In this document: positions 10,165-32,094 of the stretch, in pieces
Position numbering within the stretch: the first letter of the stretch is position 1
Layout of the letters: every line of letters starts with the position of its first letter
Virus record (IMG/VR): IMGVR_UViG_3300045988_147571
Reading direction: 5' to 3' (one strand)
Length of the DNA stretch: 64,000 nt
Source of the DNA: a virus
Program-made: the position numbers and the translations under genes
The notes under the pieces: generated by a model
What the model was told of the DNA's origin: nothing
The model's input: the letters and a program-made list of their open reading frames with translations, nothing else
Databases searched by the model: none

Positions 10165-10625
10165 ATGAAACTTAATTTTTCTAGTAATGAAGTAAGAAAC
10201 ATTTTTGCAGAAAATGATTATGCAGAGTACTCCCAGCTTATGTTTGACACAGCTATGGGAGAAGAAAAAGTATCTACAAAAGATGCTAATGACAAGATCA
10301 GAGAGATCATGTTCTCCGTACTTGGTGTAGATGAAAATTGCACTAAGAAAGAGCTTAGAAAAGCTATTCGTAGACATAAAATTGATGTATTTGAAATCAT
10401 CGAGGAAACAGTAGAGAATCTGCTTGTTTCTGGTTGGGGAGAAAACCCATTCTTCAATGAATTCGTAGAGATTAAATCTATGGCTGATGGTGATACTAAT
10501 GAGTTCTATGTACCGGATGAAGTTATTCTGACAGTGTCTGAACTTGCGGGCAATCACCATGATCTGATCAGACAGCGCCTGGCAGAAGGACAGACATTCT
10601 CTGTTAAAACTTCTTGGTATGGGAT
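10165..10625 (+). CDS. major capsid protein, exon 1
   Basis: Strong RBS GGAAGGAGGAA. The reading frame continues seamlessly in exon 2 after intron removal (...KTSWYG-I-KIYAEYELFMAGRIDW...). Unspliced, the ORF stops at 10635. The capsid call rests on position, expression signals and a downstream terminator. Confidence 0.65.
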
Positions 10626-11866
10626 TAACTTTTAGTCCCCTTAACATTGTGAAATGTTTTGAAATAAATAACGCATTGAATTGCTGGAAAACCTTAAAGC
10701 TAGTTAAACTACAACGTAATCTAAAAAGATAAGCGTGAATGTAACGAAAGTAGAAAAAATTAACTAGATGATACATGGTTCAATCCTAAATATCATGAGT
10801 AATTAGACACCTGTTTATAGGTGTTTTTTATTATGCTCAAAAATAGGCAATCAGCAGCTAAGACTTTTTAAAATGAGTAAAGTTCAACGACTATCTGGAG
10901 ACAGAGTACATATACAAGTGTTTGGTATATGGAAGTGGTGCGCACCCTCGATGGGTGAAGATATAGTCTAATCTTTAGCGAAAGTTAAAGGGCTTTAAGC
11001 CAACACGGAGTAGCGTCCGATTAATATCATTTTTCAAAATAATTATATAAGGAACTATGAATGCAAGAAAAATTATGTGGTATTTATTGTATAAAAAATA
11101 CTTTAAATAACAAAAAATATATTGGTATGTCAAGAGATATAAAACGAAGATGGTCCGAGCATAGAACAGAATTAAATAGCCACACTCATGTTAATCAATA
11201 TTTACAATCTGCATGGGATAAGTATGGTAAATCAAATTTTAAGTTCTATGTTATTGAGTTATGTGAAGAAGAAAAACTTAGTGAACGTGAATGTTATTAC
11301 ATACAATTATATAAATCTTTATCTCATGAAAATGGATACAATTTAACAACTGGTGGTGAAAATACATCTATTGGTAAATCTGTTATATATTTGAAAGATG
11401 GAACGATTTATAACTATGTAAACGAAGCTGCTCAAGAAGCTAATGTTCAGTCCGTAACTATGATTAGTTGGTGCCGCAAGAAACATAACTATATGTATTT
11501 AGATGAATATAACACTCTTTCTAAAACAGAAAAAGAATACTGGAAAAATTTTAATTGGGAAGAATTTGACCATCAAAAATTAAGTCAAGCACATTCTCGT
11601 GAAAATCTCTCAAGGGTCACAATAAACAAATTAAGTCAAGCTACATCTGGAGATAATAATCCAAGAGCACTTAAAGTTTATTGCCCACAGCTAGATGAAA
11701 CATTTGATTGTATAAAATATGCCTCTGACAAATATGGAGTTAATAGAAGTAGCATATCTTCGTGTCTTAAAGGAAGACTTAAAAGTGCCGGTAAGCATCC
11801 CGTTACCGGAGAAAAACTAACATGGGAAACAGTTGAAAAATGATATTGAATTGTTAAATATAAATG
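10626..11866 (+). mobile_element. group I intron in the capsid gene, carrying a GIY-YIG HEG
   Basis: P1: exon GGGAU (10621-10625) pairs with GUCCC (10635-10639), with a U-G wobble at the splice site. P10: UUUUA (10630-10634) pairs with exon 2 UAAAA (11867-11871). Omega-G at 11866. J8/7-P7 is GAAGAUAUAGUC (10957-10968), with the P7 partner GACUAU at 10889-10894. Confidence 0.85.
11061..11843 (+). CDS. intron-encoded GIY-YIG homing endonuclease
   Basis: MQEKLCGIYCIKNTLNNKKYIGMSRDIKRRWSEHR. C-terminal SSISSCLKGRLKSAG DNA-binding motif. Lies in the 3' (P9-side) part of the intron and ends 23 nt before the 3' splice site. Confidence 0.85.
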   Translation: MQEKLCGIYCIKNTLNNKKYIGMSRDIKRRWSEHRTELNSHTHVNQYLQSAWDKYGKSNFKFYVIELCEEEKLSERECYYIQLYKSLSHENGYNLTTGGENTSIGKSVIYLKDGTIYNYVNEAAQEANVQSVTMISWCRKKHNYMYLDEYNTLSKTEKEYWKNFNWEEFDHQKLSQAHSRENLSRVTINKLSQATSGDNNPRALKVYCPQLDETFDCIKYASDKYGVNRSSISSCLKGRLKSAGKHPVTGEKLTWETVEK

Positions 11867-12485
11867 TAAAATTTACGCAGAATATGAGCTGTTTATGGCA
11901 GGTCGTATTGACTGGGCTGGATTTGTACAGAAAATCTATGAAGCCTTTGATAAGAAAATCAACGATATGGTATATGCAGCTGTAATGGCAGCAGGTGAGA
12001 AGGTTCTCCCGTCTACACAGTTTAATAAGACAGGTACACTTTCATCAACAACAAAAGATGAGTTTATGACTCTGATTGAAGATGTACAGATGGCTACAGG
12101 TGATGAAGTAGTTGTTATGGGTACCAAATCTGCTCTTGCAAAACTTTCTGCTATGGAAGATATCACTTGGGTATCTAATGAGATGAAAAACGAAAGACAT
12201 ACTACAGGTCGTTTAGGTCTGTTTGAAGGTATTCGTCTTGTTGAAATTCCTCAGAGATTTGCAAATAATGATACAACTACTAAGTTAGTAGATAATACTA
12301 AGCTTTTGATTATGCCAGTAGCTGATAATAAATTTATCAAGATCTACAATGAAGGCGACGCTCAGATTAAAGAAGTATCTGATGGAAATACAAATATGGA
12401 TAAAACTATTGAGTATGAATATCAGCTTAAAATGGGTGTAGCTACAATTATTGGTAAACGATTTGGAGTTTGGACACTCAAATAA
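11867..12485 (+). CDS. major capsid protein, exon 2
   Basis: In frame with exon 1 (461 + 619 nt = 360 codons including the stop, 359 aa). The frame is open upstream of the ORF-track ATG (11895) back to 11850. Confidence 0.65.
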
Positions 12486-19159: not shown

Positions 19160-21694
19160 ATGGCTGATTATACAATACAAGTAGGCGTAGAAGTTGAAGA
19201 TAGTAAATTGGATGCGCTGGAAACACGAATTAATTCATTAAAAGATAAACATGTTAAACTCAATGTGGATTTTGGTAATAGTAAGCAGTTGGCTAGAAAC
19301 GCTCAGACAGCGGTAAAAACTATTAATAAAGCTACTGTAAAAGCTGCCAAAAACAGTCCTTCAATTAAGGGGGCCAATCTTGTAGAACAAATGGTTGATC
19401 CCGAAAAAGCTTTAAAAGCAATGTCTAGTACAGTTGGCAAGCTATCTAAATATCAGGGAAAACTTGATTTAGGAGAAGTAAGACTTTCAGTTAATCAAGG
19501 GATTATGGGAGAACTAGATGGTCTTCTTAGTAAATTAAATGAAATTAAAGCAACTGCTAAGAACATGGGATCCATCAAACTTACTGTTGGTGATAATATT
19601 AAAACACAAGACGGTAAAATAGTTGTTGGATCAAATAGCAGTGCCTCTACTGGTTCTGTCAGATCATCTGGACTAACACTTAGACAAGCGCAGGCCGAAA
19701 TCAAAAAAAATATGAAAACCATTGGTACTTTACAAGAACAGTATATCAATGGTCATGTTGATGAATCTACATATAGACAGTCAAAAAAAACTATAGGACA
19801 AAGAAATGCTTATTTAGCAAGAATGGTGCAAACTCAAGGTACTGCTTCTGACTGGGTTACTTCTGCTACTGATTTTAGAGAAGCTCAAGCCAAGAATCGA
19901 GCTGCCTATAGAGAGATGATGTCTAGTGCTGATGCCTATGATAAAGTAATTAGTGATTTGGGTGAAAAACAAAAAACATTTAATGAAGCTGCTCAAGTAT
20001 ATAATTCTAACAGTAGAAGTCCATTAAATAAGACTTTAGGACCCGGATATCAAGCAAGGCTTACAGCTTTTAATGATGTCTATGGTCAATTAAAAGAGTC
20101 ACATGATAAAATCTCCACGCTTACTGGAGATGAAAAAGATCTTGAAAAAGTACGTTTCAGCGCTCTTAAATCTGAAGCTAATCGTCAAGCCAGACAGCTT
20201 AATAATGTGAGTCAGTTTTTCTCAAAAACTCCAAATAAATATAGTAGATCTGAATTTGTAGGTACAGACTTAGATGTGACTTCTGATAAAGTTCAGAATA
20301 AAATGTCACAAATGGTTGATAATCTTGCTAATGGCAGTAGATATACTAAAGAATTTAATGCAGCACAAGGAAAAATGTATGCTACAATAGACAGAGGCTC
20401 TGGTGTATTTGAAAAATATCAGCTTGCATACAAAAATGGGCCAGGTAATATCGATCAGTCTCTTAGCAAAGTCACTCAGAGCGTAAAACCTCTTTCTAGT
20501 TACATTTCTGAAATGGGACAAAAGTTCCGTAGTCTTAGCCAGTATCTTATCAGTAATTTCGGATTCCAAGCTTTAACAACAGGTATCAGATCAGGTGTTA
20601 CATCTATAAAAGAATTAGATTCAGCAATGACTGAATTAAAGAAAACCTCTGAAGGTACAAAACAGGAATATAGAGACTTTACTACTCAAGCTAGGAGTGA
20701 CGCTAAAGATATCGGTAGTACGACTACTCAGATTACTAATAGTGCTGCTGATTTCTCACGTCTTGACTACACACTTGGCGAATCTCAAACTCTAGCTAAA
20801 AATACTGGTATATTAAAAAATGTATCAGAATTTGAGTCTATAGATGATGCAACAACTGCTATGATTTCTATGATGAAAGCATATGATGTAAAAGTTGATG
20901 ATTCTATGGATCTCATTGATAAAATGAATCTTATTGGTAACAACTATGCAATTTCTACAGATGGAATTGCTACCGCTTTACAAGATTCAGGTTCAGCATT
21001 GGTAGCAGCGGGAAACGACTTTGACAAGTCAGTTGCTCTTGTGACGGCTGCTAATAGTGTAGTACAGGACCCATCAAAGGTAGGCGCTGGTCTTAGAACA
21101 ATTGCTTTACGACTTAGAGGCACTTCTGCTGAAGAATTATCTTCTATGGGTGAAGATACAGAAGGTCTTGTAGAGACCACTTCTAAACTTAATTCAAATA
21201 TTAAATCTCTTACTGCCGTTAACGGTAAGGCTGGAGTTTCTATTCTTGATATGAATGGAAACTATAGAGATACTTATGATATTTTAAAAGATATCTCTCA
21301 GGTTTGGGATGATATTGGTAAGCAAGATTTGGCAGATGGTCAGAATAGACAGGCTGCTCTGCTTGAAATGATGGCAGGAAAAAATAGAAGTAATATTCTT
21401 GCATCCATATTACAGCATCCTGAATTACTTACAGATGTTTATAATGATTCCGCAAATAATTATCAAAATTCAGCTCAGAACGAGCTTAATACATACCTTG
21501 ATTCTATCGAAGCAAAAACAACTAAAATTAAAGAATCTTGGTCACAGTTATGGCAATCAGAAGGTAGTACTAATACTTTTAAAGGATTGCTTGATATTGG
21601 CAACGGCGCTGTAGGACTCTTAAATGGTTTAGGACTCAATAAAACCTTAGCCGGAGTCGGCGGTATGCTTGTTAGCCATGCTATGAACTGGGGT
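19160..21694 (+). CDS. tape measure protein, exon 1
   Basis: TP901-type TMP core (DIGSTTTQITNSAADFSRL...GIATALQDSGSALVAAGNDFDKSVALVTAANSVVQDPSKVGAGLRTIALRLRG). Unspliced, the ORF ends at 21721 inside the P1 loop. Confidence 0.85.
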
Positions 21695-22114
21695 GGGACA
21701 AATTATCAGTTGGTCCTTTAGAAAACGCCCCATGTAACCTGGTGGTGACACGGAACGATCTCATATGAGAAAGGGGTTACTAAGCAAACAACCGAAACTG
21801 TCTTTATTCGAAGGAATAGAGAAATGCTTTTAATTTGGCATTCAGGGTGAACCGAAGTATATACTACTCCCCTATTACAGTAATGTAATAGGTATAGTAA
21901 CAACGTATATATATGGGTAATCTGCAGCGAAGCTTCTTTATTTTATAGAGAAGAACGTTCATCGACTATAATGGGAACTTGGTCTCCGGATCAAGAAGGA
22001 ATAGTCAGGACTGTTAGGCAGCTTACGCCGAATAAATTAAAGGGTAAATACATCTTACTCTTGTAAGCAATCTTACCTTATGTGCAAAGGTGATGTAAGC
22101 ACAAAAGCAAGAGA

Positions 22115-22225
22115 TTACTCTCCTGCTTCTTTATGTTTAATATAATATGTACAATCTTCATTTTCAAAGTAAGGACATTCCTCTTCCTTACATTCTTTGT
22201 AGAGAGGACATTCTAATATTTCCAT
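22115..22225 (-). CDS. 36-aa Cys-containing micro-ORF
   Basis: MEILECPLYKECKEEECPYFENEDCTYYIKHKEAGE. Perfect GGAGG 10 nt upstream of the ATG. Below the size cut-off of the ORF track. Confidence 0.45.
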   Translation of the reverse strand: MEILECPLYKECKEEECPYFENEDCTYYIKHKEAGE

Positions 22226-22300
22226 AATCTTTAAACCTCCATAGTATAGTTTTGTTGACTGTCTAAAAGAAATTATTGATTAATTTTCAGAATATAACCT

Positions 22301-22852
22301 TTAATGATTTAAAAAACATTGATCTAACTCTAATAATATTTTTTCCAAATCATCTATATTGATAATAAGAAAAAATTTTCCTTTATGATCTTCTCTAATA
22401 TCTTCGTCTTCAAATTGTATAGCTTTTATTTCAGTACTTGCGTTATGAGTTAATGGATGAATCATTAAACGATCATGGCAGACAGCATTCCTTAAATGTT
22501 TAATTACATTTCTTTCACAATTATTTTCTTTGTATGTGTTTTTATAGATCTCATTATACGTCTTATTAGTGAGTCTTTTTAATGTAGGCACATTCTGAAA
22601 ATTATCTTTTCTATTAGATAGATAATTAAAATATTTCTCTTTTGGAAAAACAAGTAACCCCAAAAAAGAATTTATTAATTGAGTGACCTCATAACATTTT
22701 TGATACTCAAATTCATTGGCAAACATAATTCTTTTTAAACAAGAAATCTCTTTATTTTTATTATGTCCAGCTAATTTTTGAATCATGAAATAATTCATTT
22801 GTGTCCTACAAATAAACTCTTTAACATAATCATCATCTTTAAAATTACTCAT
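22301..22852 (-). CDS. HEPN-like protein (Rx4H motif), predicted RNase
   Basis: The C-terminal half carries IKHLRNAVCHDRL (R-x4-H). About 180 aa, predicted helical. The start lies 6 nt after the upstream stop, with GGTGA inside the upstream gene. Confidence 0.5.
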   Translation of the reverse strand: MSNFKDDDYVKEFICRTQMNYFMIQKLAGHNKNKEISCLKRIMFANEFEYQKCYEVTQLINSFLGLLVFPKEKYFNYLSNRKDNFQNVPTLKRLTNKTYNEIYKNTYKENNCERNVIKHLRNAVCHDRLMIHPLTHNASTEIKAIQFEDEDIREDHKGKFFLIINIDDLEKILLELDQCFLNH

Positions 22853-22858
22853 AAACTA

Positions 22859-23362
22859 TCACCAAGTATATCCACAAGAGTTACACTTAAAGCTCTTGTT
22901 AATCTTCTTACTGAATAATCCCAATATTCCTACTGATACCATACGTTCTCCTGTAGAGATTTTACGAATATTGGTGGAACCACATGTTGGACACTTAGGC
23001 CCAGTAGAGAATTTCTGAGCATTCTGTTTGGCATACCACTGGTCTGTTATCCTGTTTTGCTCTTCTATTCCTTCAGGAGATTCACTATATTTTCTTTTTT
23101 TAACGGCAGAGTAATCTACTTCATTGTCTAACTTTCCATAAAAATATTTTTGCCTAAATATCTCAGATGATTCCAAATGACTAGGACAATGACCATCATG
23201 AGTTTTCTCATATTCTTTTGATAGCTCCATATATGCTGTAGACCAATCAATGCCAGTACCTATATAAGTTCCAGTTTCACAGGTATAACATTTATCTCCT
23301 ATTTTATAAGAAGAAGATGTACTAGTCTTTCCACATTTATTACAAAATAATAATTCTTCCAT
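22859..23362 (-). CDS. double zinc-ribbon protein
   Basis: CNKCGK...CYTCETG at the N-terminus. CPTCGSTN...hydrophobic VSVGILGLF...CNSCGYTW at the C-terminus. Confidence 0.55.
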   Translation of the reverse strand: MEELLFCNKCGKTSTSSSYKIGDKCYTCETGTYIGTGIDWSTAYMELSKEYEKTHDGHCPSHLESSEIFRQKYFYGKLDNEVDYSAVKKRKYSESPEGIEEQNRITDQWYAKQNAQKFSTGPKCPTCGSTNIRKISTGERMVSVGILGLFSKKINKSFKCNSCGYTW

Positions 23363-23403
23363 ATTGTTCCTTTTTATTATATATAGTAATTAAGATTAGC
23401 TAT

Positions 23404-23432
23404 ATTATATCACACAGTTTGGTTTTCGCCAA
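23404..23432 (-). promoter_or_regulatory. sigma-A/sigma-70-like promoter for the antisense cassette
   Basis: The minus strand reads TTGGCG-17 nt-TATAAT with a TG extension (TGaTATAAT). The -10 lies in the last 18 nt of the intron and the -35 in the first 11 nt of TMP exon 2. Confidence 0.45.
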
Positions 23433-26400
23433 GAATGAAGATGGAGAAATTTTACCGCAATCACGAAGAGCTCAACGTAATGCTGCTATAGCGAAAGGTT
23501 ATGTAGAAGCCAATAAAAATTGGCAAGCATATTCAGATGATTTAGAAGTTCTTAAAGAGCTTAACAAGCAACTTGATAATAATGGTCAGGCCATTACAGA
23601 CAACGAGCAACGTATGGCCAAAGCAAATGAAGTAACGAAGAATGCTAGTCAAAGAGCTAAAGATTATGGTAAACAAATGGCCACTAATGCTAAGACTCTC
23701 ACTGATTTTAAAAGAGAAAATGAGGTAGAGAAACCTGATCAACAGAAACAAGGGAAATGGTCCGATGGTCTAAAAAGTATGGCATCTGCAGGTCTCTCAA
23801 TGATTGGCAATGCTTTTATTTCCGCTGGTGTTGGAATGCTTGTGCAAGGAGCTTTCTCATTGCTTGGTAAAGGCATTGACGCTTTCGTTCATAAAAATGA
23901 GAACTTAATTGCTAAAGGTCAAGAAGCAAAAGAATCCATTCAATCCCAAACTAAAGCCTATGAAGACCAGAAAGCATCTCTTGGAGAACTTACTTCCAAA
24001 TACACAGAATTATCTAAAGGCGTAAAAATATCTGGTAATTCTATTAAAAATATTAGTCTTACAGATGATGAATATAAGGATTTCTTAAATACAAGTAATC
24101 AGATTGCTGCCGCAGCACCTAGTCTCACACGTTCATGGGACTCCCAGGGTAATGCCATTCTTAATGCTGGGACTAATGCTGAGGATTTAAACACTCAGAT
24201 TAATGATTACTTGAAGTTACAGAGGAACCTTACTTACTATGATACTAAGAAAAATATTAGTAATCAGTATGAGGGATATGAAACTGCTTTAGGTACTAAC
24301 GAGCGTCAAAAAAATGATTACAAAGATAAATATGATGCAGCAAAATTTAAAGTTAATTCTATGCAGAATTTTTCGAATATGCTTAAAAAGCAAAAAAAAG
24401 GAGAAGATACCTTTAGCTACACATTGGATCAAGCTGCATATGATGCACTCGGCAATACCTTTGGAAAAGCAATAAAAAACTATACACAATCTGCTGATGG
24501 TCAAACAATAACTTTGGAATTTGATGGCAAACAATTAGATTTTCTTAACAACGAAGCAGCCAACATATTAAGTTCTGATAGTAGTGAACTTCAAGAAGCT
24601 CATACCAATTTAGTTAATACACAAGAATCTATAGATGCAGCAAAAAGAGAAATGGTTTCTTCTATCAAGTCAATGGCAAGCACTATTGATTCTTTTGATA
24701 GCTGGGACGATCAAGATAAAGCATCAGAATTTCAATCACAGTTGAATAGTATGCTTAATTCTACGGACAATACCAGATTGCTTAATGATTTTAAAGAATC
24801 CGGTAAAGATATGGACACATGGCTTCGCAATAACATTGTGAACCCTATGTCAACTGCAAATTCAGATGAACAAAAACTTTGGGAACAAGCATTTGAAATG
24901 GAGCCTAAAGATAAAGAAACAGTTCAAGAATTTGCCGCTCGTAGAAATAATCTTTTCGATCAGATTGCTGCTATTTCTGACAGTGATTTTTGGGATAGAG
25001 ATACACTTGGAGAAGCTTTTGGCTTTAACCATACAGAATATGATGATAATGGAAAAGCTGAATTTGTATGGGAAAATCAAGATAAGTTAAATCGAATACA
25101 AGACGCATTGAAAAATGCAAAAGCCAGTAAAACAAAAGGCGATGCTTCTGATGTAAGAACAGATCTTAATAATATGACCCCTGATGAGTTGGACATAGCT
25201 GTACAAGTTATTACTGACTCAGATGCTTTAACTTCTATAGATTCTTTTTATGAGGCATTCGAAAAGGCTAAACAAGCAGCTAAAAATATGAGTGATCAGG
25301 CAGCCGTTTCTTTAGATTCAATGGAAACTAAAGTATCAACTGCTAAGTCTACTCTTTCTTCTATGGGAACTATTCTTACAGAGACTACTTCTGCAGGCGG
25401 AGTTTCTAAAGACAATGTTAAGATTCTTTCTACTGCTTTCAAAAATGTGAAAGACCCTCGTGGCATTGAGCAAAATGTTAATGATTTATTCACCACTACT
25501 TCTGATGGTATCAAACTAAACATAGATGCTTTGAAAACCTTTACGGAATATCAGACTGAAGCCACTGATGGAGATTTCGAAAAGGGTATTAAGTTACAGA
25601 CTAAAGCTATTGCCGAGCAAGCAGAAGAAACAGATAAAGCTTGGAAAGCTATTGCTAAAGCCGATGACAAGGAAGCAGCTAGAGCAACTTATAACGCAGA
25701 AAAAGATAAATTAAAAGATGCTAGAAACGAATATTTATCTTATATGCAATCTCAGTCTGAATGGCAAGCAACTAAGAAACAGCAACAGGAACTTCTTTCT
25801 TATTATTCTCAGTGGCAACGTGCCCAGAGTACGGAGAATGCCGGAGATAAATATAATAACATTGTTGCCGGACTAAAAAATGCTAAAGATGCATATGATA
25901 AAGGTCTTGTAGGTACAGATGATTTTAAATCATTTGCTGCTCTTATTTCTCCTACAGGTTCAGATGATAGAGCAAACTTTGCAGAGAATTATGGTAAAGC
26001 TGTAAGATACCTCACAGAAGATAAGACAGGTGTTAATAATTTCTTAGCTGATCTTAAATCTAAGGGTATGGCATCTTATGATGATGCAAGTAAAAGATGG
26101 TCATTTGACATAGATGATATGAGTAAAGCCGCTCGATCAATGGGAATCAGCAAAGAATTCATGAGTGCTAACTTCGGTCGTCTTCGTGATTATGGCATTG
26201 ATAATAATTTTATATCATCTACAGAAGAAGGTATAGATAGGGTTCAGGAACTTACTTCTGCTCTTTCAGACGAACAAAAACGACTTGAAGAATTAAAGAA
26301 TACGGATAGCACCAATACTACTGCTATTACTGCTTCTGAGGACAAAGTTAATAAATATAAACAGGATTTAAAAGAAACCTATGATAATATGGGTGACTAC

Positions 26401-29400
26401 TCTGAAGATGCTGCACAGACTGCTGTTGATAATTTTAATTCGGCAGCAATGGGTGTACAATCATATCAGAATGCAATAGAAAATGTTAAAAAGAATGAGA
26501 ATCTGACAGAAGCTCAAAGAACTTCTGCAATTAATCAATTAATAGCTAAACAGGAAGAATTAGCTGCCACTTACGGTACTACTGTTAAAGAATTATTAGG
26601 AGCAGATGTATCTTCATTAATGGATGGCATTATAACAGATTCTGCTTCTGTTACTACTGCTCTTGATGGTATCAATAAAGCATATGAAGAACAGAACACA
26701 GATGTTACTTCTTTAGTTGACACTCTTGGAAAATATACTTCTGAACAGTTAGAAGGTATAGATTTCAATGATGGTAAGTGGGATACTGAATTAGGCGATG
26801 CTGAAAAAGCTGTTGAGTCTTTATGTGAGAAGCTTGGTTTAACAAAAGACCAAGCTCGTTCTGTTATTGAGGCTTTAAAAGAAGCTGGTAAATTAAAAGA
26901 TTCTGAGGAAAGTAGTGATTCCTCTAAAGAAACTACTAAGGGGTCTTGGGAGAAACCACAGACTGCTGAACAGATGGGATTCGGTGATGATCCTGACAGA
27001 GCTGCTGAATATACACATTCATTGGAAGCTCTTACTGCTGCCCATAAAGAAAATGATGCCGCTACTGAAAAGTCATTTGAAACCCTTTCTAAATATAATC
27101 GTACACAATTAGAGGGTATCAAATTAAATGATGGTGCTTATAATGTTGAGGGTATAGAACAGGCTGAAGATGCCATACAACAGTTAGCAGATAAGACTCA
27201 GTTGTCTAAAGATCAGATTCTTACTGCTCTTGAAGGTCTTGGTGTTTTGAAAGTTAATGCTCCTACTATGGATGCGACAAAAGGTTTGGAAGATTTAGTT
27301 TCTGAGGCTAAAGATGCACAGGACGAATTGTCTGATCTTACTGGTAAAACATACACATTTGATTTTGATACTACTGATTTAGATACTGCTCATAAACAGG
27401 TAGCTGACCTGCAGGAAGAAGTAAATAAATATAGAGATCGTGATGGTAAATACCATCCAGAGATTACTGGCGGAGAACAGGTGCAATCAATGTACAAAGC
27501 CGCTATTGCTCAAGAACAGAATGCTGAATATAGTTCTTCTGCTATTGGACAGTCTAGTTTATCATCAGATGTCGTACAAGCTGCTCAAGATTTTATGACA
27601 GCTAAGAATGAAATGGATCAGCAAACTCAACTTTATCAAAATGGAATGGATAATACTCTTGATAAAGCTACAGAGAAAGCTAACGCCGCATTTGAATCTT
27701 TACAACAAGCTCAAACTGATTCGGGTATTGAACTTGTAGATACTAATAATATTCAAAAAGCTGAAAATCAGTTACTTTCTATGACTGATAAAGATTTACA
27801 GGCTAAAATAGATGTTCAAGCAGATACAAGCGATGCCGAAGCAGAATTAGATGTCCTAGAAGAATTGGACGGATCTACACTTAAGCTTACTTGCGAATTA
27901 TCGGATGAAGATAGTTTTGAACGAGCTAAATCTGCTATTGAATCTATGCCAGCTAACACCGTTACAACCGTAGATATGGAAGTTAATGGTGAAGAGGATG
28001 TAGAGAAAGCAACAGAGCTTATTGAATCGGCACCTACTGATGGTACTGAGCTAGTTGTTAACTGTCATGTTGATAATGCTGAAGACTTAGATAAAATAAA
28101 TGAAGCTGCTGCAACTGCCAAAGCAAACGGAGCAAATATTAAAATAAACGCTACTGTTGGTGAAGTGGATGCTTCAACTGCTACGAGTACAGAACCTGTT
28201 AAAATGACAGGTGAAATAGAAAGTGCAGAATATACTGGCGCTCCAGTTGAAATAGAAGCTACAGCAAATATTACTAATGTGACTAATGGTGATTCCGCAG
28301 AAGTTAATCCTACAATAAATACGGATGAAGTGGATAACTATACTGTCGATGACAAAGAAGTAAATGTTGATTTTAAAAAGAATTCAGATGAAGTTGATAA
28401 TTATCAACCGGACGATAAAGATGCAACTGCCTATTATGGAGTAGATTCTTCAGCACCAGATAGTTATCAGCCGAGTGATAAAGATGCATATATCACGTAT
28501 CATATACGTGTTGAAGGAGGAATAGCTGCTGGCATTCCAAATAGTCCTTCTGGAGGATCTGGTGGTTCTTTTGCTACAGGTACAATGGCATCAGTTGCTC
28601 GTGCAGATGGTACAATGTACAATGCACCTTGGAACTATCAACTTCTCTCTTCTGCTTTTGCAAAAGGAGATGCTGCTTTACATAAAGACGAAAAAGCGTT
28701 AGTAAACGAAGTCGGGACCGAATCTATTGTGCGTGACGGTACTTGGTTTACGATTCCTGGCGGAGCACATCTTGAGAATCTTAAAAAAGGAGATATTATT
28801 TTCTCTGCTCAACAGACTAAAGATTTACTTGAACATGGCGCAACACCGGGACATGCTAGAACTTATGCACAAGGCACAGCCCCAGGATTAAGTATCTCTC
28901 CTGCTTTCTCATCTGGTTCTAGTTCTTCTACTAACACAGAATTAGATAACAAAATCAAAGAAGTTAGTACTCAGGCAAAAGACTGGATAGACGTAGCTCT
29001 TGATCGTTTAGAGAGAATCGTTGAAAAATACAAAGACACTGCTGAAAGTGACTATTCCAACTATAGAGCTTCTATTAAGGCTTACAATTCAGCACTTAAA
29101 AATCTTAAAAACCAATTAAAGACTCAAAAAGATTCCAGAGCAAAGTATGTAACTAAAGCAGACGAAGTCGCTTCTGCTGTCGGATTGTCTGACGATTTAA
29201 AAAAGAAGGTTCAAAATGGTACTATCAATATAGAGAACCTGTCAGAAGATGATAAAAAACGTGTTGATGCATATCAGGAATGGTATGAAAAAATCTTAGA
29301 CTGTGACAAAGCTATACGTCAGCTCACTATTTCGCAGAAAGATTTAGCTAAAGCTAAAGTTGATCGGGTTACTGAAGCTTATGACACTGTTATAGGCAAA

Positions 29401-32094
29401 CGTGAAAGTAAAGCTGAATATTACAAAGCAAAACAGGAATTAAGAATCACTCAAGGTTACAATCAGAAACCTGGATCTATTTATGAGAAGTATATAAAAA
29501 ATGAACTTTCTTATACTAATAAACAGAAGAAACTTACTGATAAGGAAATAAAAACCTATAAAGGTAAGATGAAAGAATATCTTGCAGAAAATGGTCATAA
29601 AACTGTTGATCCTGAATATCAGAAAATGAAGAAACAGCTTTATGATCTGGAAACCTCAGCTGTTAAATTAGAGAATGAAGCCGCACAGTTAAGACAGGCT
29701 CTACAAGATAATCGTGAACAGATTAAACAATGGGCGGTTGACCGTTGGGAAAGAGCTGGTAGTAAACAAGATGCAGTAATTAATTATAAGACTGTTTCTG
29801 ATGATCCAAACTATCAGATCAAGGAAAAGGATTACACTGAGAGAATCAAAACAAATAATCGTCAGATTATAGCTTTACAGAAGTTGAGAGCAGAAAAAGC
29901 TGAGTACTATGACAGTTATTTTAAGAGCGGAAACAACGAAGAAGCTCAGAAATATCTTGAAGCTATTGCTCAGATTGACGAACAGATTCTAAAACTTGGA
30001 GCTAGTACAGAAGAGTTAAAGAATCAAATCATGGAACTTCGTTGGAAGCCATTTGAAGATATTCAAGATGACCTTTCTAATGTAATCAGTGAGTATCAAA
30101 CCATGCAGAAGCTTCTTGGTGATACAGAAAGTTTCTACAATGACGATGGATCTTTCACTGAAAATGGTTTGACAAATATCCTTCTTTTACAGGAATCTAT
30201 TGATGTTACTAAGCAGAAAATAGCTAACTATAGAGAAGCTTTAGACAAACTAGATGAACAGTATAAGAATGGTTGTTATAGTCAGGAAGAATATACTGAG
30301 AAATCTAAAGAGCTATTAAACGGATTACAGCAAGAGTCTGCTGCCCTCTCTGATTTGCAACAGAATATGCTTACAATGTATGAGACTCAGGTTAAAACTG
30401 AGAATGATCTCTTACAGAAAAATATTGATAAGCGTTTGGAAGCTCTTGATGCTAAAGAGAAGTATTATGAGTATGATAAGACTTTGAAAAAGAAGTCTAA
30501 AGATATTAATACTCTGAAGGCACAGATAGCAGCCCTTGAAGGAACAAGCAATGCTGCTGCCAAAGCCCGTTTAGAAAAATTAAAGGCTGAATTAGCAGAA
30601 TCTGAAGAGGATATGCAAGATACTGTTCATAATCATGAAACTGAAATGAAGAAAACAGGTTTTGAGAATCTTCAATCAGATGCTGAGAAAGCTCTTGATA
30701 ATACCTTAGATGCACTGAAAAAGAATACCAATTTTCAGCAAGCAGTTATTGGTAATATGTTATCCAATGTAACTGCTAATTATGATAGTACCTATAGTCA
30801 TCTGCATGATGTTATGGATCAATATGGAGTACAGGTGTCTACTACATTTGATAAGATGATTACTAAGTCTGCTAATTTTAATACGTCCTTAGTAGCACAG
30901 ACTAAAGCTATGCAAGATGTTATTAATATGGCTACTAAACTTCCTGCCAATCTTGGCGGGACTGCTACTGACATTGTAAATAATACTGCTAAAGTTAATG
31001 GTACTTCAACCGGAGCCGGTAATGTAACGCCGGGAAAAGTAAATGATACGACTTACTCTCTGAAGTTAAATGCATCAGAAATTTATCTAACATACAGTCA
31101 TTTGAAATATTCATTGAAAGCTACATGGTCTCCAAGTAAACCGGAACACTCTGATATTGAATGGTCGAGTACAGATAAATCAGTTGCAAAGGTCTCAACT
31201 TCTGGTGTTGTTACAGGTGTAGCTGCGCCACTTAGTAAACTTGGATTAATGTCAAGAGATGAATCTTTGACTAGAAAATGTAAGATTATTGCAAATGGTG
31301 GTCCGGGTCTTGCAAAAGCTGAGTGTACGGTACATATTATGCCAGATGAACATTATAATGCCATTAAGCAATATGCTGATAAAGTTGGCATCGATACTTC
31401 TAAAGAAGGCAATAATCTTAGAGATGCTATGGAATACGCTTATAAAAATGGTGCATTCCGAAGCAATCAGTCAAGTACCGCTGTTGAAGGATTCCAGAAA
31501 GCTTATCTAAAAGACTGGTTTAATGCTCTTCCAGACCGTCCTAACGGTGCAACGGATGTTCCTAGTGGAGTTAGTCAGCTAGCTGGATATTTCTATTCCA
31601 AAGGTAAACAAGTCACACGTAATGATATGCAGAAACTTGCTGATATCCTTCAGATTAAAACTCCGGGAGTTGGAAGTTATGATACCTGGGGTGGCACACT
31701 TAAAAATAAGATTCTGAAAGCATACAAAGCTTATGGTTATGCTACTGGTGGCGTAATCAATAGACTTGTTCCTGCCAATATGGAAACACTCTTAGGTAAA
31801 GCAATCATCTCCAATGGAGATCAAGGTTTTATTGGCGCTAAAGTTGGAGAAACCGTAATGACTGAAGAGTTCACTCGTTTGCTCAAACCTTCTATTGCTG
31901 CAATGAGCGACTTTACCAATATGTTTAACCCAACTACTCCTATTGCTACCACAAATAATGATTATTCTATCAACAATGAGGTAAACATTAATGTAGCAAG
32001 TATGAGCAGTGATTTAGACATCCAAGATGTCGCCAATAAAGTCTCTACAATTATTAATAAGAATATGACTAGAGACTGGAGAAAACTTAGATGA
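23422..32094 (+). CDS. tape measure protein, exon 2
   Basis: 2890 codons in frame with exon 1. No credible RBS or ATG at the ORF-track start (TTG 23419). Long coiled-coil regions, a Big_2-like Ig domain (DIEWSSTDKSVAKVSTSGVVTGV) and a hydrophobic Gly-rich segment near the junction. Confidence 0.85.
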   Translation, partial: VFAKNEDGEILPQSRRAQRNAAIAKGYVEANKNWQAYSDDLEVLKELNKQLDNNGQAITDNEQRMAKANEVTKNASQRAKDYGKQMATNAKTLTDFKRENEVEKPDQQKQGKWSDGLKSMASAGLSMIGNAFISAGVGMLVQGAFSLLGKGIDAFVHKNENLIAKGQEAKESIQSQTKAYEDQKASLGELTSKYTELSKGVKISGNSIKNISLTDDEYKDFLNTSNQIAAAAPSLTRSWDSQGNAILNAGTNAEDLNTQINDYLKLQRNLTYYDTKKNISNQYEGYETALGTNERQKNDYKDKYDAAKFKVNSMQNFSNMLKKQKKGEDTFSYTLDQAAYDALGNTFGKAIKNYTQSADGQTITLEFDGKQLDFLNNEAANILSSDSSELQEAHTNLVNTQESIDAAKREMVSSIKSMASTIDSFDSWDDQDKASEFQSQLNSMLNSTDNTRLLNDFKESGKDMDTWLRNNIVNPMSTANSDEQKLWEQAFEMEPKDKETVQEFAARRNNLFDQIAAISDSDFWDRDTLGEAFGFNHTEYDDNGKAEFVWENQDKLNRIQDALKNAKASKTKGDASDVRTDLNNMTPDELDIAVQVITDSDALTSIDSFYEAFEKAKQAAKNMSDQAAVSLDSMETKVSTAKSTLSSMGTILTETTSAGGVSKDNVKILSTAFKNVKDPRGIEQNVNDLFTTTSDGIKLNIDALKTFTEYQTEATDGDFEKGIKLQTKAIAEQAEETDKAWKAIAKADDKEAARATYNAEKDKLKDARNEYLSYMQSQSEWQATKKQQQELLSYYSQWQRAQSTENAGDKYNNIVAGLKNAKDAYDKGLVGTDDFKSFAALISPTGSDDRANFAENYGKAVRYLTEDKTGVNNFLADLKSKGMASYDDASKRWSFDIDDMSKAARSMGISKEFMSANFGRLRDYGIDNNFISSTEEGIDRVQELTSALSDEQKRLEELKNTDSTNTTAITASEDKVNKYKQDLKETYDNMGDYSEDAAQTAVDNFNSAAMGVQSYQNAIENVKKNENLTEAQRTSAINQLIAKQEELAATYGTTVKELLGADVSSLMDGIITDSASVTTALDGINKAYEEQNTDVTSLVDTLGKYTSEQLEGIDFNDGKWDTELGDAEKAVESLCEKLGLTKDQARSVIEALKEAGKLKDSEESSDSSKETTKGSWEKPQTAEQMGFGDDPDRAAEYTHSLEALTAAHKENDAATEKSFETLSKYNRTQLEGIKLNDGAYNVEGIEQAEDAIQQLADKTQLSKDQILTALEGLGVLKVNAPTMDATKGLEDLVSEAKDAQDELSDLTGKTYTFDFDTTDLDTAHKQVADLQEEVNKYRDRDGKYHPEITGGEQVQSMYKAAIAQEQNAEYSSSAIGQSSLSSDVVQAAQDFMTAKNEMDQQTQLYQNGMDNTLDKATEKANAAFESLQQAQTDSGIELVDTNNIQKAENQLLSMTDKDLQAKIDVQADTSDAEAELDVLEELDGSTLKLTCELSDEDSFERAKSAIESMPANTVTTVDMEVNGEEDVEKATELIESAPTDGTELVVNCHVDNAEDLDKINEAAATAKANGANIKINATVGEVDASTATSTEPVKMTGEIESAEYTGAPVEIEATANITNVTNGDSAEVNPTINTDEVDNYTVDDKEVNVDFKKNSDEVDNYQPDDKDATAYYGVDSSAPDSYQPSDKDAYITYHIRVEGGIAAGIPNSPSGGSGGSFATGTMASVARADGTMYNAPWNYQLLSSAFAKGDAALHKDEKALVNEVGTESIVRDGTWFTIPGGAHLENLKKGDIIFSAQQTKDLLEHGATPGHARTYAQGTAPGLSISPAFSSGSSSSTNTELDNKIKEVSTQAKDWIDVALDRLERIVEKYKDTAESDYSNYRASIKAYNSALKNLKNQLKTQKDSRAKYVTKADEVASAVGLSDDLKKKVQNGTINIENLSEDDKKRVDAYQEWYEKILDCDKAIRQLTISQKDLAKAKVDRVTEAYDTVIGKRESKAEYYKAKQELRITQGYNQKPGSIYEKYIKNELSYTNKQKKLTDKEIKTYKGKMKEYLAENGHKTVDPEYQKMKKQLYDLETSAVKLENEAAQLRQALQDNREQIKQWAVDRWERAGSKQDAVINYKTVSDDPNYQIKEKDYTERIKTNNRQIIALQKLRAEKAEYYDSYFKSGNNEEAQKYLEAIAQIDEQILKLGASTEELKNQIMELRWKPFEDIQDDLSNVISEYQTMQKLLGDTESFYNDDGSFTENGLTNILLLQESIDVTKQKIANYREALDKLDEQYKNGCYSQEEYTEKSKELLNGLQQESAALSDLQQNMLTMYETQVKTENDLLQKNIDKRLEALDAKEKYYEYDKTLKKKSKDINTLKAQIAALEGTSNAAAKARLEKLKAELAESEEDMQDTVHNHETEMKKTGFENLQSDAEKALDNTLDALKKNTNFQQAVIGNMLSNVTANYDSTYSHLHDVMDQYGVQVSTTFDKMITKSANFNTSLVAQTKAMQDVINMATKLPANLGGTATDIVNNTAKVNGTSTGAGNVTPGKVNDTTYSLKLNASEIYLTYSHLKYSLKATWSPSKPEHSDIEWSSTDKSVAKVSTSGVVTGVAAPLSKLGLMSRDESLTRKCKIIANGGPGLAKAECTVHIMPDEHYNAIKQYADKVGIDTSKEGNNLRDAMEYAYKNGAFRSNQSSTAVEGFQKAYLKDWFNALPDRPNGATDVPSGVSQLAGYFYSKGKQVTRNDMQKLADILQIKTPGVGSYDTWGGTLKNKILKAYKAYGYATGGVINRLVPANMETLLGKAIISNGDQGFIGAKVGETVMTEEFTRLLKPSIAAMSDFTNMFNPTTPIATTNNDYSINNEVNINVASMSSDLDIQDVANKVSTIINKNMTRDWRKLR

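Follow-up and report, generated by a model that had tools for sequence, protein, structure and literature searches.

The stretch of DNA analysed here, referred to below as the window, is the whole 64,000 nucleotides (nt) of the IMG/VR virus record IMGVR_UViG_3300045988_147571, and the element of interest is an insert at positions 21695-23421 that interrupts the gene for a phage tape measure protein. The ORF list shows two long plus-strand open reading frames (ORFs) around it, 19160-21721 (853 amino acids, aa) and 23419-32094 (2891 aa). The neighbouring genes of relatives carry YomW and YomU_Tube domains, and the source is therefore of the SPbeta-like siphophage or prophage type; the related contigs come from human gut metagenomes. 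A first-pass annotation, made from the letters of the sequence and the ORF list, had proposed that a group I intron splits a single tape measure gene here. All of the strings and ORFs it quoted were present where it had placed them, and its main claim is supported by covariation in helix P1, by the terminal G of the insert, by the lack of a start codon for the second ORF in some relatives, and by the tape measure protein of Enterococcus phage VRE9_4. The gene is laid out as follows:

19160-21694, plus strand: tape measure exon 1, 845 codons (from the ORF list, PF10145 and the ORF ends of relatives)
21695-23421, plus strand: predicted group I intron, 1727 nt, with a ribozyme core, an antisense cargo and a short 3' terminal segment
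23422-32094, plus strand: tape measure exon 2, 2890 codons plus stop (from the ORF list and the alignments of relatives)

Unspliced, the first ORF runs beyond exon 1 into the insert and meets a stop at 21719-21721, 27 nt inside it. The TP901-type tape measure core that had been recognised in this ORF was located as PF10145 (PhageMin_Tail), at aa 513-723. Joining 21694 directly to 23422 keeps the reading frame (...AMNWG|VFAKNEDG...), which bears out the in-frame ligation proposed earlier, and the predicted junction of the spliced exons reads ...ATGAACTGGGGT|GTTTTCGCCAAG.... Alignments to each tape measure half end or begin precisely at the junction, even at 34-52% identity, and those of exon 2 with its relatives begin precisely at V23422, even at 34-51% identity. 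The annotated tape measure protein of Enterococcus phage VRE9_4 is uninterrupted and spans the junction in one alignment (query residues 15-296, E 1e-16). Translational bypassing, protein splicing or a rearrangement of the DNA could in principle bridge a gap of this kind, and the in-frame arrangement of the two ORFs is the only feature that speaks for them. They are hardly conceivable here: the stop 27 nt into the insert is followed by 1.7 kb with many stops, the intervening ORFs lie on the opposite strand, so that no intein is possible, and the group I evidence given below explains all of the features.

About 60 related loci were collected, 26 from IMG/VR (L004-L029), 27 from metagenomes (L056-L082), and L002, L003, L030-L032 and L087 from Logan/ENA. 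In all of them the insert occupies the identical codon boundary. Its length was 1085-3846 nt in the loci measured, with an intron of ~1076 nt, by coordinates, in L031. Over its first ~410 nt the intron showed an identity of 96% or more in most loci, of 77% in L032 and of 66% in L031.

The elements recognised at the two splice sites were:

21689-21694, plus strand: 5' strand of P1 at the end of exon 1 (UGGGGU), pairing with 21727-21732; U21694 is the wobble U
21695-21717, plus strand: hairpin in the P1 loop (GGGAC...GUCCU), from the minimum-energy fold
21721-21726, plus strand: P10 part of the guide (GAAAAC), complementary to 23422-23427 (GUUUUC)
21727-21732, plus strand: P1 part of the guide (GCCCCA), with the U21694-G21727 wobble at the cleavage site
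23421, plus strand: terminal G (omega-G), invariant; the preceding bases vary (UUUG, UCUG, AACG, UUCG, UCUG)

The 12-nt guide, GAAAACRCCCCA (also given as GAAAACGCCCCA), stands 27 nt past the putative 5' splice site and is the single exact occurrence of its sequence on both strands of the 64-kb window; with one mismatch allowed, 0.23 sites are expected in the whole window. The count alone is weak evidence, because the junction was picked after the sequence had been viewed. What places the guide far beyond chance is that the 5' splice site, the U-G pair, the guide and the terminal G are kept in the ~60 loci, and that P1 covaries. Pairing was counted on an alignment of 16 distinct cores, using a model of helices P1 to P9.2 that was built by hand from the Rfam alignment and the variants. 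P1 showed 6 of 6 pairs in all 16 cores, with compensatory changes at three of the six, and the U-G wobble that had been predicted at the cleavage site was unchanged in every core. The two strands read UGGGGU/GCCCCA in the window, UUGGGU/GCCCAA in L062, and CUGGAU/GUCCAG in L031 and L087. The hairpin in the P1 loop showed one compensatory change (C-G to U-A in L032), with 97.5% of its cells paired.

At the other end of the insert, the proposed omega-G was found to be invariant in relatives while the bases beside it drift. The variant 3' ends were ...CAGUUUG|GUUUUC, ...CAGUAUCUG|GUUUUU, ...CAGUUAACG|GUUUUC, ...CAGUUCG| and ...CAGUAUUCG|, as well as ...CAGUCUG|GCUUUC and ...CAGUUUG|UUUUUC; the terminal G is constant in all of these, and the 2-4 bases before it differ.

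The helices of the ribozyme core, listed from 5' to 3', were placed at:

21734-21780, plus strand: P2 (GUAACCU/GGGUUAC) with an inner hairpin; 100% paired, two compensatory pairs
21798-21819, plus strand: P2.1 hairpin, aligned by Rfam to the first hairpin of the model
21834-21840, plus strand: 5' strand of P3, pairing with 21972-21977 (Rfam alignment)
21843-21924, plus strand: P4 and an extended P5 arm (P5, P5a, P5b, P5c; Rfam alignments)
21927-21958, plus strand: P6 and P6a (Rfam alignment), with U-G to C-G and C-G to U-A among relatives
21964-21969, plus strand: 5' strand of P7 (GACUAU), pairing with 22001-22006; matches the Rfam consensus GACUA...UAGUC
21978-21995, plus strand: P8 hairpin (CUUGGUC-UCCG-GAUCAAG); four of seven pairs compensatory, 100% paired
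22001-22006, plus strand: 3' strand of P7 (AUAGUC), with J8/7 AAGGA immediately before it
22017-22029, plus strand: P9 (GGC...GCC), with C-G to A-U in L031 and U-G in L028
22042-22060, plus strand: P9.1 hairpin (GGGUA/UACUC), from covariation and the minimum-energy fold; 100% paired
22073-22093, plus strand: P9.2 hairpin (UUACCUU/AAGGUGA), from the minimum-energy fold; three compensatory pairs

A sensitive search of 21500-23600 (2.1 kb) with the Rfam model Intron_gpI (RF00028) gave a match at 21794-22028, with 25.4 bits and an E-value of 7.7e-4, in which the whole model (positions 1-253) was aligned. In the alignment P3-P8 followed one another in canonical order, the P3/P7 pseudoknot was present together with strands J6/7 and J8/7, and P7 (GACUA/UAGUC), J8/7 and P8 fell where the first-pass annotation had put them. 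The core of L031, at 66% identity, produced a separate local match (29 bits, E 3.6e-5). When the whole loci L001-L003 were searched with Rfam at E 0.1 the intron was not reported, because the larger search space hides a 25-bit match. A scan of genome contigs for the P7-P8-P7 pattern returned 0 matches.

Across the P1-P9.2 model, 98.9% of cells were standard-paired, compared with 41-46% when the partners were slid by 1-3 columns. Changes on both sides that keep the pairing were found at 22 pairs, against 2.6 +/- 1.5 in shuffled alignments (0 of 500 reached 22) and 1-4 in slid ones. They were distributed over P1 (three pairs), P2 (two), P8 (four), P9 (one), P9.1 (one) and P9.2 (three), as well as P6a and the P1-loop hairpin. 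In P2, C-G became U-A in L024 and L062, and G-C in L031 and L032; in P9.1 one pair appeared as G-C, G-U or A-U, and another as G-U or G-C. P7 was invariant in 16 of 16 cores, and P3 was 100% paired, with a single one-sided change of A-U to G-U. The P2.1 hairpin was preserved in L031 and L032 despite a different sequence. The P5 arm varies as peripheral RNA elements do, being replaced by one short hairpin in L031 and L087 and ending in a different hairpin, with a GNRA loop, in L032. A hairpin at 22054-67 had at first been modelled, and was dropped for P9.1 (22042-60), which covaries.

In the window the only start candidate for exon 2 is a TTG that overlaps the splice site, with no Shine-Dalgarno-like sequence or ribosome-binding site seen upstream of it. 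In three types of relative (L017/L026, L024 and L029) no in-frame ATG, GTG or TTG was present between the upstream stop and exon 2. These findings tell against two separate tape measure genes with an accessory island between them, an arrangement in which the group I-like sequence would be an inactive relic and the two polypeptides would assemble non-covalently. The TTG that stands precisely at the start of ORF 2 in the window would suit such an arrangement, as would an Rfam score under the cut-off and the split seen in every relative found, down to 34% identity, with no close continuous allele. A relic, however, would not keep a P1 that is paired with the exon, with three compensatory changes and a fixed U-G, nor 22 covarying pairs, and the terminal G and the frame are conserved amid drifting neighbour bases; we consider two genes very unlikely. 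The ORFs called in relatives contain translated intron at the junction: those of exon 1 end in the translated 5' end of the intron, (G/R)(T/I)NYQ(L/F)(V/I)L*, and those of exon 2 start with translated 3' intron sequence, 'YIISHSL'.

Four short segments may take part in bringing the 3' splice site back to the core:

22010-22013, plus strand: ACUG in J7/9, candidate 5' half of P9.0, complementary to CAGU at 23415-23418
22070-22075, plus strand: AUCUUA, candidate partner of UAAGAU and core of the proposed closing helix; overlaps P9.2 at 22073-75
23391-23396, plus strand: UAAGAU, invariant in all 3' terminal segments
23415-23418, plus strand: CAGU, candidate 3' half of P9.0, kept in all variant 3' ends

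CAGU stands 2-4 nt upstream of the terminal G in all variants, and ACUG is likewise invariant; from this we infer that the two form P9.0, a pairing that shows no covariation. The P10 pairing has 6 of 6 pairs in the window, and also 6 of 6, one of them G-U, where exon 2 starts with GUUUUU (the L002 type). The helix that had been proposed to close the cargo insertion, GCAAUCUUA at 22067-75 with UAAGAUUAGC at 23391-400, is there in full in the window, whereas relatives preserve just its 6-bp core (AUCUUA/UAAGAU), with varying flanks and no covariation. Because only this core is conserved and the 5' arm overlaps the covarying P9.2, the closing helix is regarded as possible but unproven. Among the divergent loci, UAAGAU is present in L030, and both hexamers occur in L031 and L087. 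The conservation of UAAGAU could also stem from its position in the 5' untranslated region of the minus-strand operon that the intron carries (see below).

It is very probable, in our judgement, that 21695-23421 is a functional group I intron, and that its splicing makes one tape measure protein. A late transcript would read exon 1, intron and exon 2, and the ribozyme core (P1-P9.2, 21689-22093) would fold with the guide at 21721-21732 paired to the last 6 nt of that exon, U21694-G21727 forming the pair where cleavage takes place. Guanosine would then attack after U21694. The 3' segment would be returned to the core, probably by CAGU/ACUG (P9.0) and by P10 with GUUUUC, and perhaps by UAAGAU/AUCUUA, and ligation after G23421 would give one mRNA encoding a tape measure protein of 3735 aa (...AMNWG-VFAKNEDG...). 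The transcript of the minus-strand operon could be made while the late genes are silent, and it would have no sequence in common with the spliced mRNA.

Between the core and the 3' segment lies a cargo of ~1.3 kb, with three minus-strand ORFs. The first-pass annotation had noted a cargo insertion, and this part of it stands, but it had missed the antisense strand of the cargo, its non-endonuclease content, its own promoter and terminator, and its variability. The features of this cassette are:

22104-22129, minus strand: terminator-like hairpin at the cassette end, followed by the U-run UUUUGUGCUU; -16.9 kcal/mol, z = -3.2
22115-22225, minus strand: Cys-rich ORF of 36 aa (ECPxYxECKExECxYFxxEDC), called as a gene in relatives
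22301-22852, minus strand: HEPN pEK499_p136 protein of 183 aa, a predicted RNase toxin (Pfam PF18736)
22859-23362, minus strand: zinc-ribbon protein of 167 aa with two zinc ribbons, first gene of the cassette
23404-23432, minus strand: predicted cassette promoter of the sigma-70 type (TTGGCG, 17 nt, TATAAT with a TG extension)

The zinc-ribbon gene, which adjoins the 3' splice site, was present in every complete insert examined. Its product has CxxC pairs at both ends and gave weak matches to Pfam zinc ribbons, and its family comprises 329 unnamed homologues. The HEPN protein matches PF18736 with an E-value of 2.6e-15 and 56.9 bits (cut-off 26.6) over profile positions 5-144 of 152, and its R-x4-H motif (RNAVCH) can be read from the translation. 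In a comparison of the 36-aa ORF with that of L031 all four Cys are kept, and the differences fall at codon positions one, two and three in numbers of 15, 2 and 19. The predicted promoter has its -10 box in the last 20 nt of the intron and its -35 box in exon 2. It ties for the top with the other 10/12 sites, four in all, in 21600-23600, and is the sole one with a TG extension; promoter-like sites are not enriched over that region as a whole. The arrangement is also readable in L031 (-10 box with TG) and L017. A consensus terminator scan did not list the hairpin at 22104-22129. With a promoter at the 3' splice site and a terminator abutting the core, the predicted cassette transcript would lie wholly inside the intron.

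The genes that follow the zinc ribbon differ among relatives, and include HEPN proteins of 183 or 198 aa, a membrane-like ORF of 102 aa, ORFs of 305 aa or 225 aa, a pair of 108 aa and 145 aa, or the 36-aa ORF alone. Some relatives have a plus-strand module of 154-aa and 51-aa ORFs directly after the core, and others a 59-aa ORF. The 154-aa ORF (L002 3363-3827, plus strand; phrog_33355, no Pfam match) is carried by roughly half of the relatives but not by the window, where the insertion point of the module corresponds to the interval between 22105 and 22119; judging by this position, it could be a homing or maturase-like gene that has escaped recognition. No homing endonuclease was found in the window intron, in which no plus-strand ORF of at least 50 aa had a family match, and the cargo ORFs, all on the minus strand, fall outside the known homing nuclease families. 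None of the cargo proteins compared with PADLOC (HEPN, zinc-ribbon, 36-aa ORF and a set of the variable partners) gave a match, and PHROGs, NCBIfam and a PDB sequence search gave no cargo match beyond the Pfam HEPN and the weak zinc-ribbon matches.

On plasmid-like contigs (L084-L086) a zinc-ribbon homologue with 42% identity lies outside any intron, in tandem with a paralogue, and adjoins a resolvase, a RepB-type regulator and a SprT-like gene. From its place beside a resolvase, outside introns, it follows that the zinc-ribbon module is mobile in its own right.

The convergent promoter that overlaps the 3' splice site, the terminator-like hairpin directly after the core, and the short, AU-rich pairings proposed to recruit the 3' end could also be understood if the ribozyme is intact and its splicing inefficient or conditional. 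The intron would then act as a regulatory valve, with transcription of the cassette, or an antisense duplex, setting the amount of full-length mRNA. No sequence feature demands regulation, however, and the same layout occurs with cargo from ~0.7 to 3.4 kb. Remote 3' splice sites are, moreover, tolerated in other phage introns, such as that of T4 sunY/nrdD. A valve of this sort is judged unlikely, if a little less so than two separate genes.

Several points weigh against a functional intron with the anatomy and cargo described above. The covariance-model check of the core gave a significant match (E 7.7e-4) that falls short of the curated cut-off: 25.4 bits do not reach the Rfam gathering score of 50 bits, and at that threshold the sole group I match in the window is another intron, at 10617-10990. 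P3, P4 and P7 are fully paired and never show both-sided changes, so that the evidence for them is the model and their conservation, and pairing in P5c drops to 93%, some cells being unpaired in certain close relatives. A distance of 1.3 kb separates the 3' splice site from the core, and none of the pairings put forward for its recruitment covaries. The idea of one contiguous guide for P1 and P10 held fully for its P1 part, which covaries, whereas the P10 part is present and conserved but without compensatory changes, and is reduced to 5 of 6 pairs, with one mismatch, in L031 and L087; the exon bases in P10 are additionally constrained by a conserved Phe codon. No close intron-less allele was found in a search of 5.8 billion proteins, in an all-against-all HMMER search (1.84 billion representatives), or in IMG/VR, and for this reason the exact junction rests on the frame, P1, the terminal G and distant homologues. 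Only weak fragments cross the junction (P0067, P0057, P0063, P0035, P0102 and P0105), of which the distant P0067 reads ...GGVFAK... through the site. The terminator hairpin and converging transcription could hamper transcription of the tape measure gene, and the role of the cassette, for which PADLOC, PHROGs and NCBIfam gave no match, is conjecture.

In two of the fragments, P0057 and P0063, the ORFs cross the junction site and stop ~25 aa further on, with the common tail ...(V/I)IGKLITHQ.... This tail looks like translated insert, and another intron may sit nearby in a different clade.

Megablast of 21000-24200 against 50,697 phage records gave no match, and the tblastn matches were confined to distant tape measure genes from Enterococcus and Brevibacillus. 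Some phages have a core ~99% identical to that of the window and an exon 2 protein with only ~51% identity. The intron is therefore far better conserved than the 3' exon, and lies at a mosaic boundary. Mosaicism at this point fits recombination or horizontal spread, with the intron as the boundary. When the loci L002-L029 were compared with window 21095-24000, the end of exon 1 and the core were 98-100% identical in the phages with a ~51% exon 2.

Group I introns of phages are usually viewed as vehicles for homing endonucleases. The sunY (nrdD) intron of phage T4 has a 5' core, a long insertion after P9 and a short 3' segment that pairs back; its insertion is a same-strand homing endonuclease ORF (I-TevII), where the tape measure intron described here has an antisense operon with its own predicted promoter and terminator. 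Group I introns in prophage tape measure genes are themselves already documented, and the unusual part of the present example is the cargo. In prophages of the Bacillus cereus group they occupy three sites in the tape measure gene (TMP-IVS1, IVS2 and IVS3), have been assigned to subgroups IA1/IA2, and either contain a homing endonuclease gene, complete or vestigial, or are without cargo (Tourasse and Kolsto 2008, PMC2504315). They share with the present intron a position inside a tape measure gene, in siphophages or prophages of Firmicutes, and a P1/P10 guide adapted to the site; they are also more conserved than the phages that carry them and common to different ones, and some are without a complete endonuclease (PMC2504315). 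Compared by description, the present intron differs in having no P7.1/P7.2 insertion between P7 and P3, in its long P5 arm, and in a cargo that is an antisense multi-gene cassette.

Both antisense genes and non-endonuclease cargo have precedents: some group I introns of nuclear rDNA bear homing endonuclease genes in antisense orientation (PMC9548176), and giant mitochondrial group I introns enclose other, host housekeeping genes (PMC6545197). These examples are eukaryotic, and none of them is phage-borne with toxin-like accessory genes. No phage group I intron with an antisense, non-endonuclease, toxin-like cassette and its own promoter was found in the literature searched, an absence that is no proof of novelty. 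Anantharaman et al. (2013, PMC3710099) describe members of the HEPN pEK499_p136 family as predicted RNase toxins with links to restriction-modification, Pgl and further conflict systems. Unlike the examples in that study, the present one lacks restriction-modification genes, ART, Macro, NamA and Pgl as partners; an uncharacterised protein with two zinc ribbons takes their place, and the genes reside within an intron.

The gene order, with a constant zinc ribbon and a variable partner, together with the HEPN assignment, hints at a toxin-antitoxin or abortive-infection pair. The cassette may act in phage-phage or phage-host conflict. A broader and more tentative reading, to which we give somewhat less than even chances, is that an intron in an essential tail gene serves a lineage of SPbeta-like gut phages as a safe harbour for an antisense cassette. 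That cassette would combine the constant zinc ribbon with interchangeable partners (HEPN RNase, small membrane-like protein, and proteins of 225 aa and 305 aa without assigned function) in an exclusion or toxin-type system expressed in the lysogen, and intron and cassette would together form a recombination boundary between tape measure modules. The cassette could be swapped freely, because splicing would remove it from the tape measure mRNA. It is this possible insulated, swappable conflict cassette that makes the locus interesting, and such an antisense, modular and probably independently transcribed set of toxin-like genes suggests that self-splicing introns may offer accessory or conflict genes an insulated place of integration inside essential genes. 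The constant P1 pairing, U-G and terminal G, set against widely differing cargo lengths, also provide a natural series on how a remote 3' splice site is found. For annotation, the consequence is that, as long as the intron goes unnoticed, gene calling will split this tape measure gene into two ORFs in thousands of gut phage contigs, with spurious N-terminal extensions such as 'MNYIISQYL...', and the Rfam cut-off misses this intron.

A second, canonical group I intron lies in the window at 10617-10990 (plus strand), where Rfam Intron_gpI scored 71.3 bits (E 4e-16). It is followed by an ORF of 260 aa for a GIY-YIG/NUMOD homing endonuclease at 11061-11843 (Pfam GIY-YIG, 5e-12). Within the block of structural genes the region 10617-11843 is flanked by ORFs 10165-10635 and 11895-12485. 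The two introns share phage, strand, structural block and a group I ribozyme, but the one at 10617-10990 scores above the Rfam cut-off and has the P7-P3 insertion typical of subgroup IA and a same-strand endonuclease, none of which applies to the tape measure intron.

Five related loci (L021, L022, L025, L028 and L029) have a second interruption of ~1.7 kb in exon 1 (e.g., L021 1400-3205), at a place equivalent to about 21380-21430 of the window, which is without it. This interruption contains an ORF of 377 aa with HTH repeats and an HNH-like C-terminus, and gave no Rfam match at E 0.01; it may be a further intron or the insertion of a free-standing endonuclease gene. In L063 (581-1550) the first 255 aa of the HTH/HNH-like ORF run directly into the P5 3' strand of the tape measure intron, with loss of the exon segment and of the 5' intron half. 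An endonuclease gene sited in P5 was considered for this 255-aa HTH ORF and rejected, as it is the truncated N-terminus of the 377-aa ORF from the upstream interruption; L063 looks either like a defective prophage that arose by deletion or like an assembly chimera. Locus L001 was set aside: it joins the start of exon 2 to a glycosyltransferase gene, has acetyltransferases and a T-box leader upstream, and a coverage of 1.8x, and is almost certainly an assembly chimera. Elsewhere in the window, a tRNA gene is present at 1202-1273 on the plus strand (Rfam tRNA, 65.2 bits).

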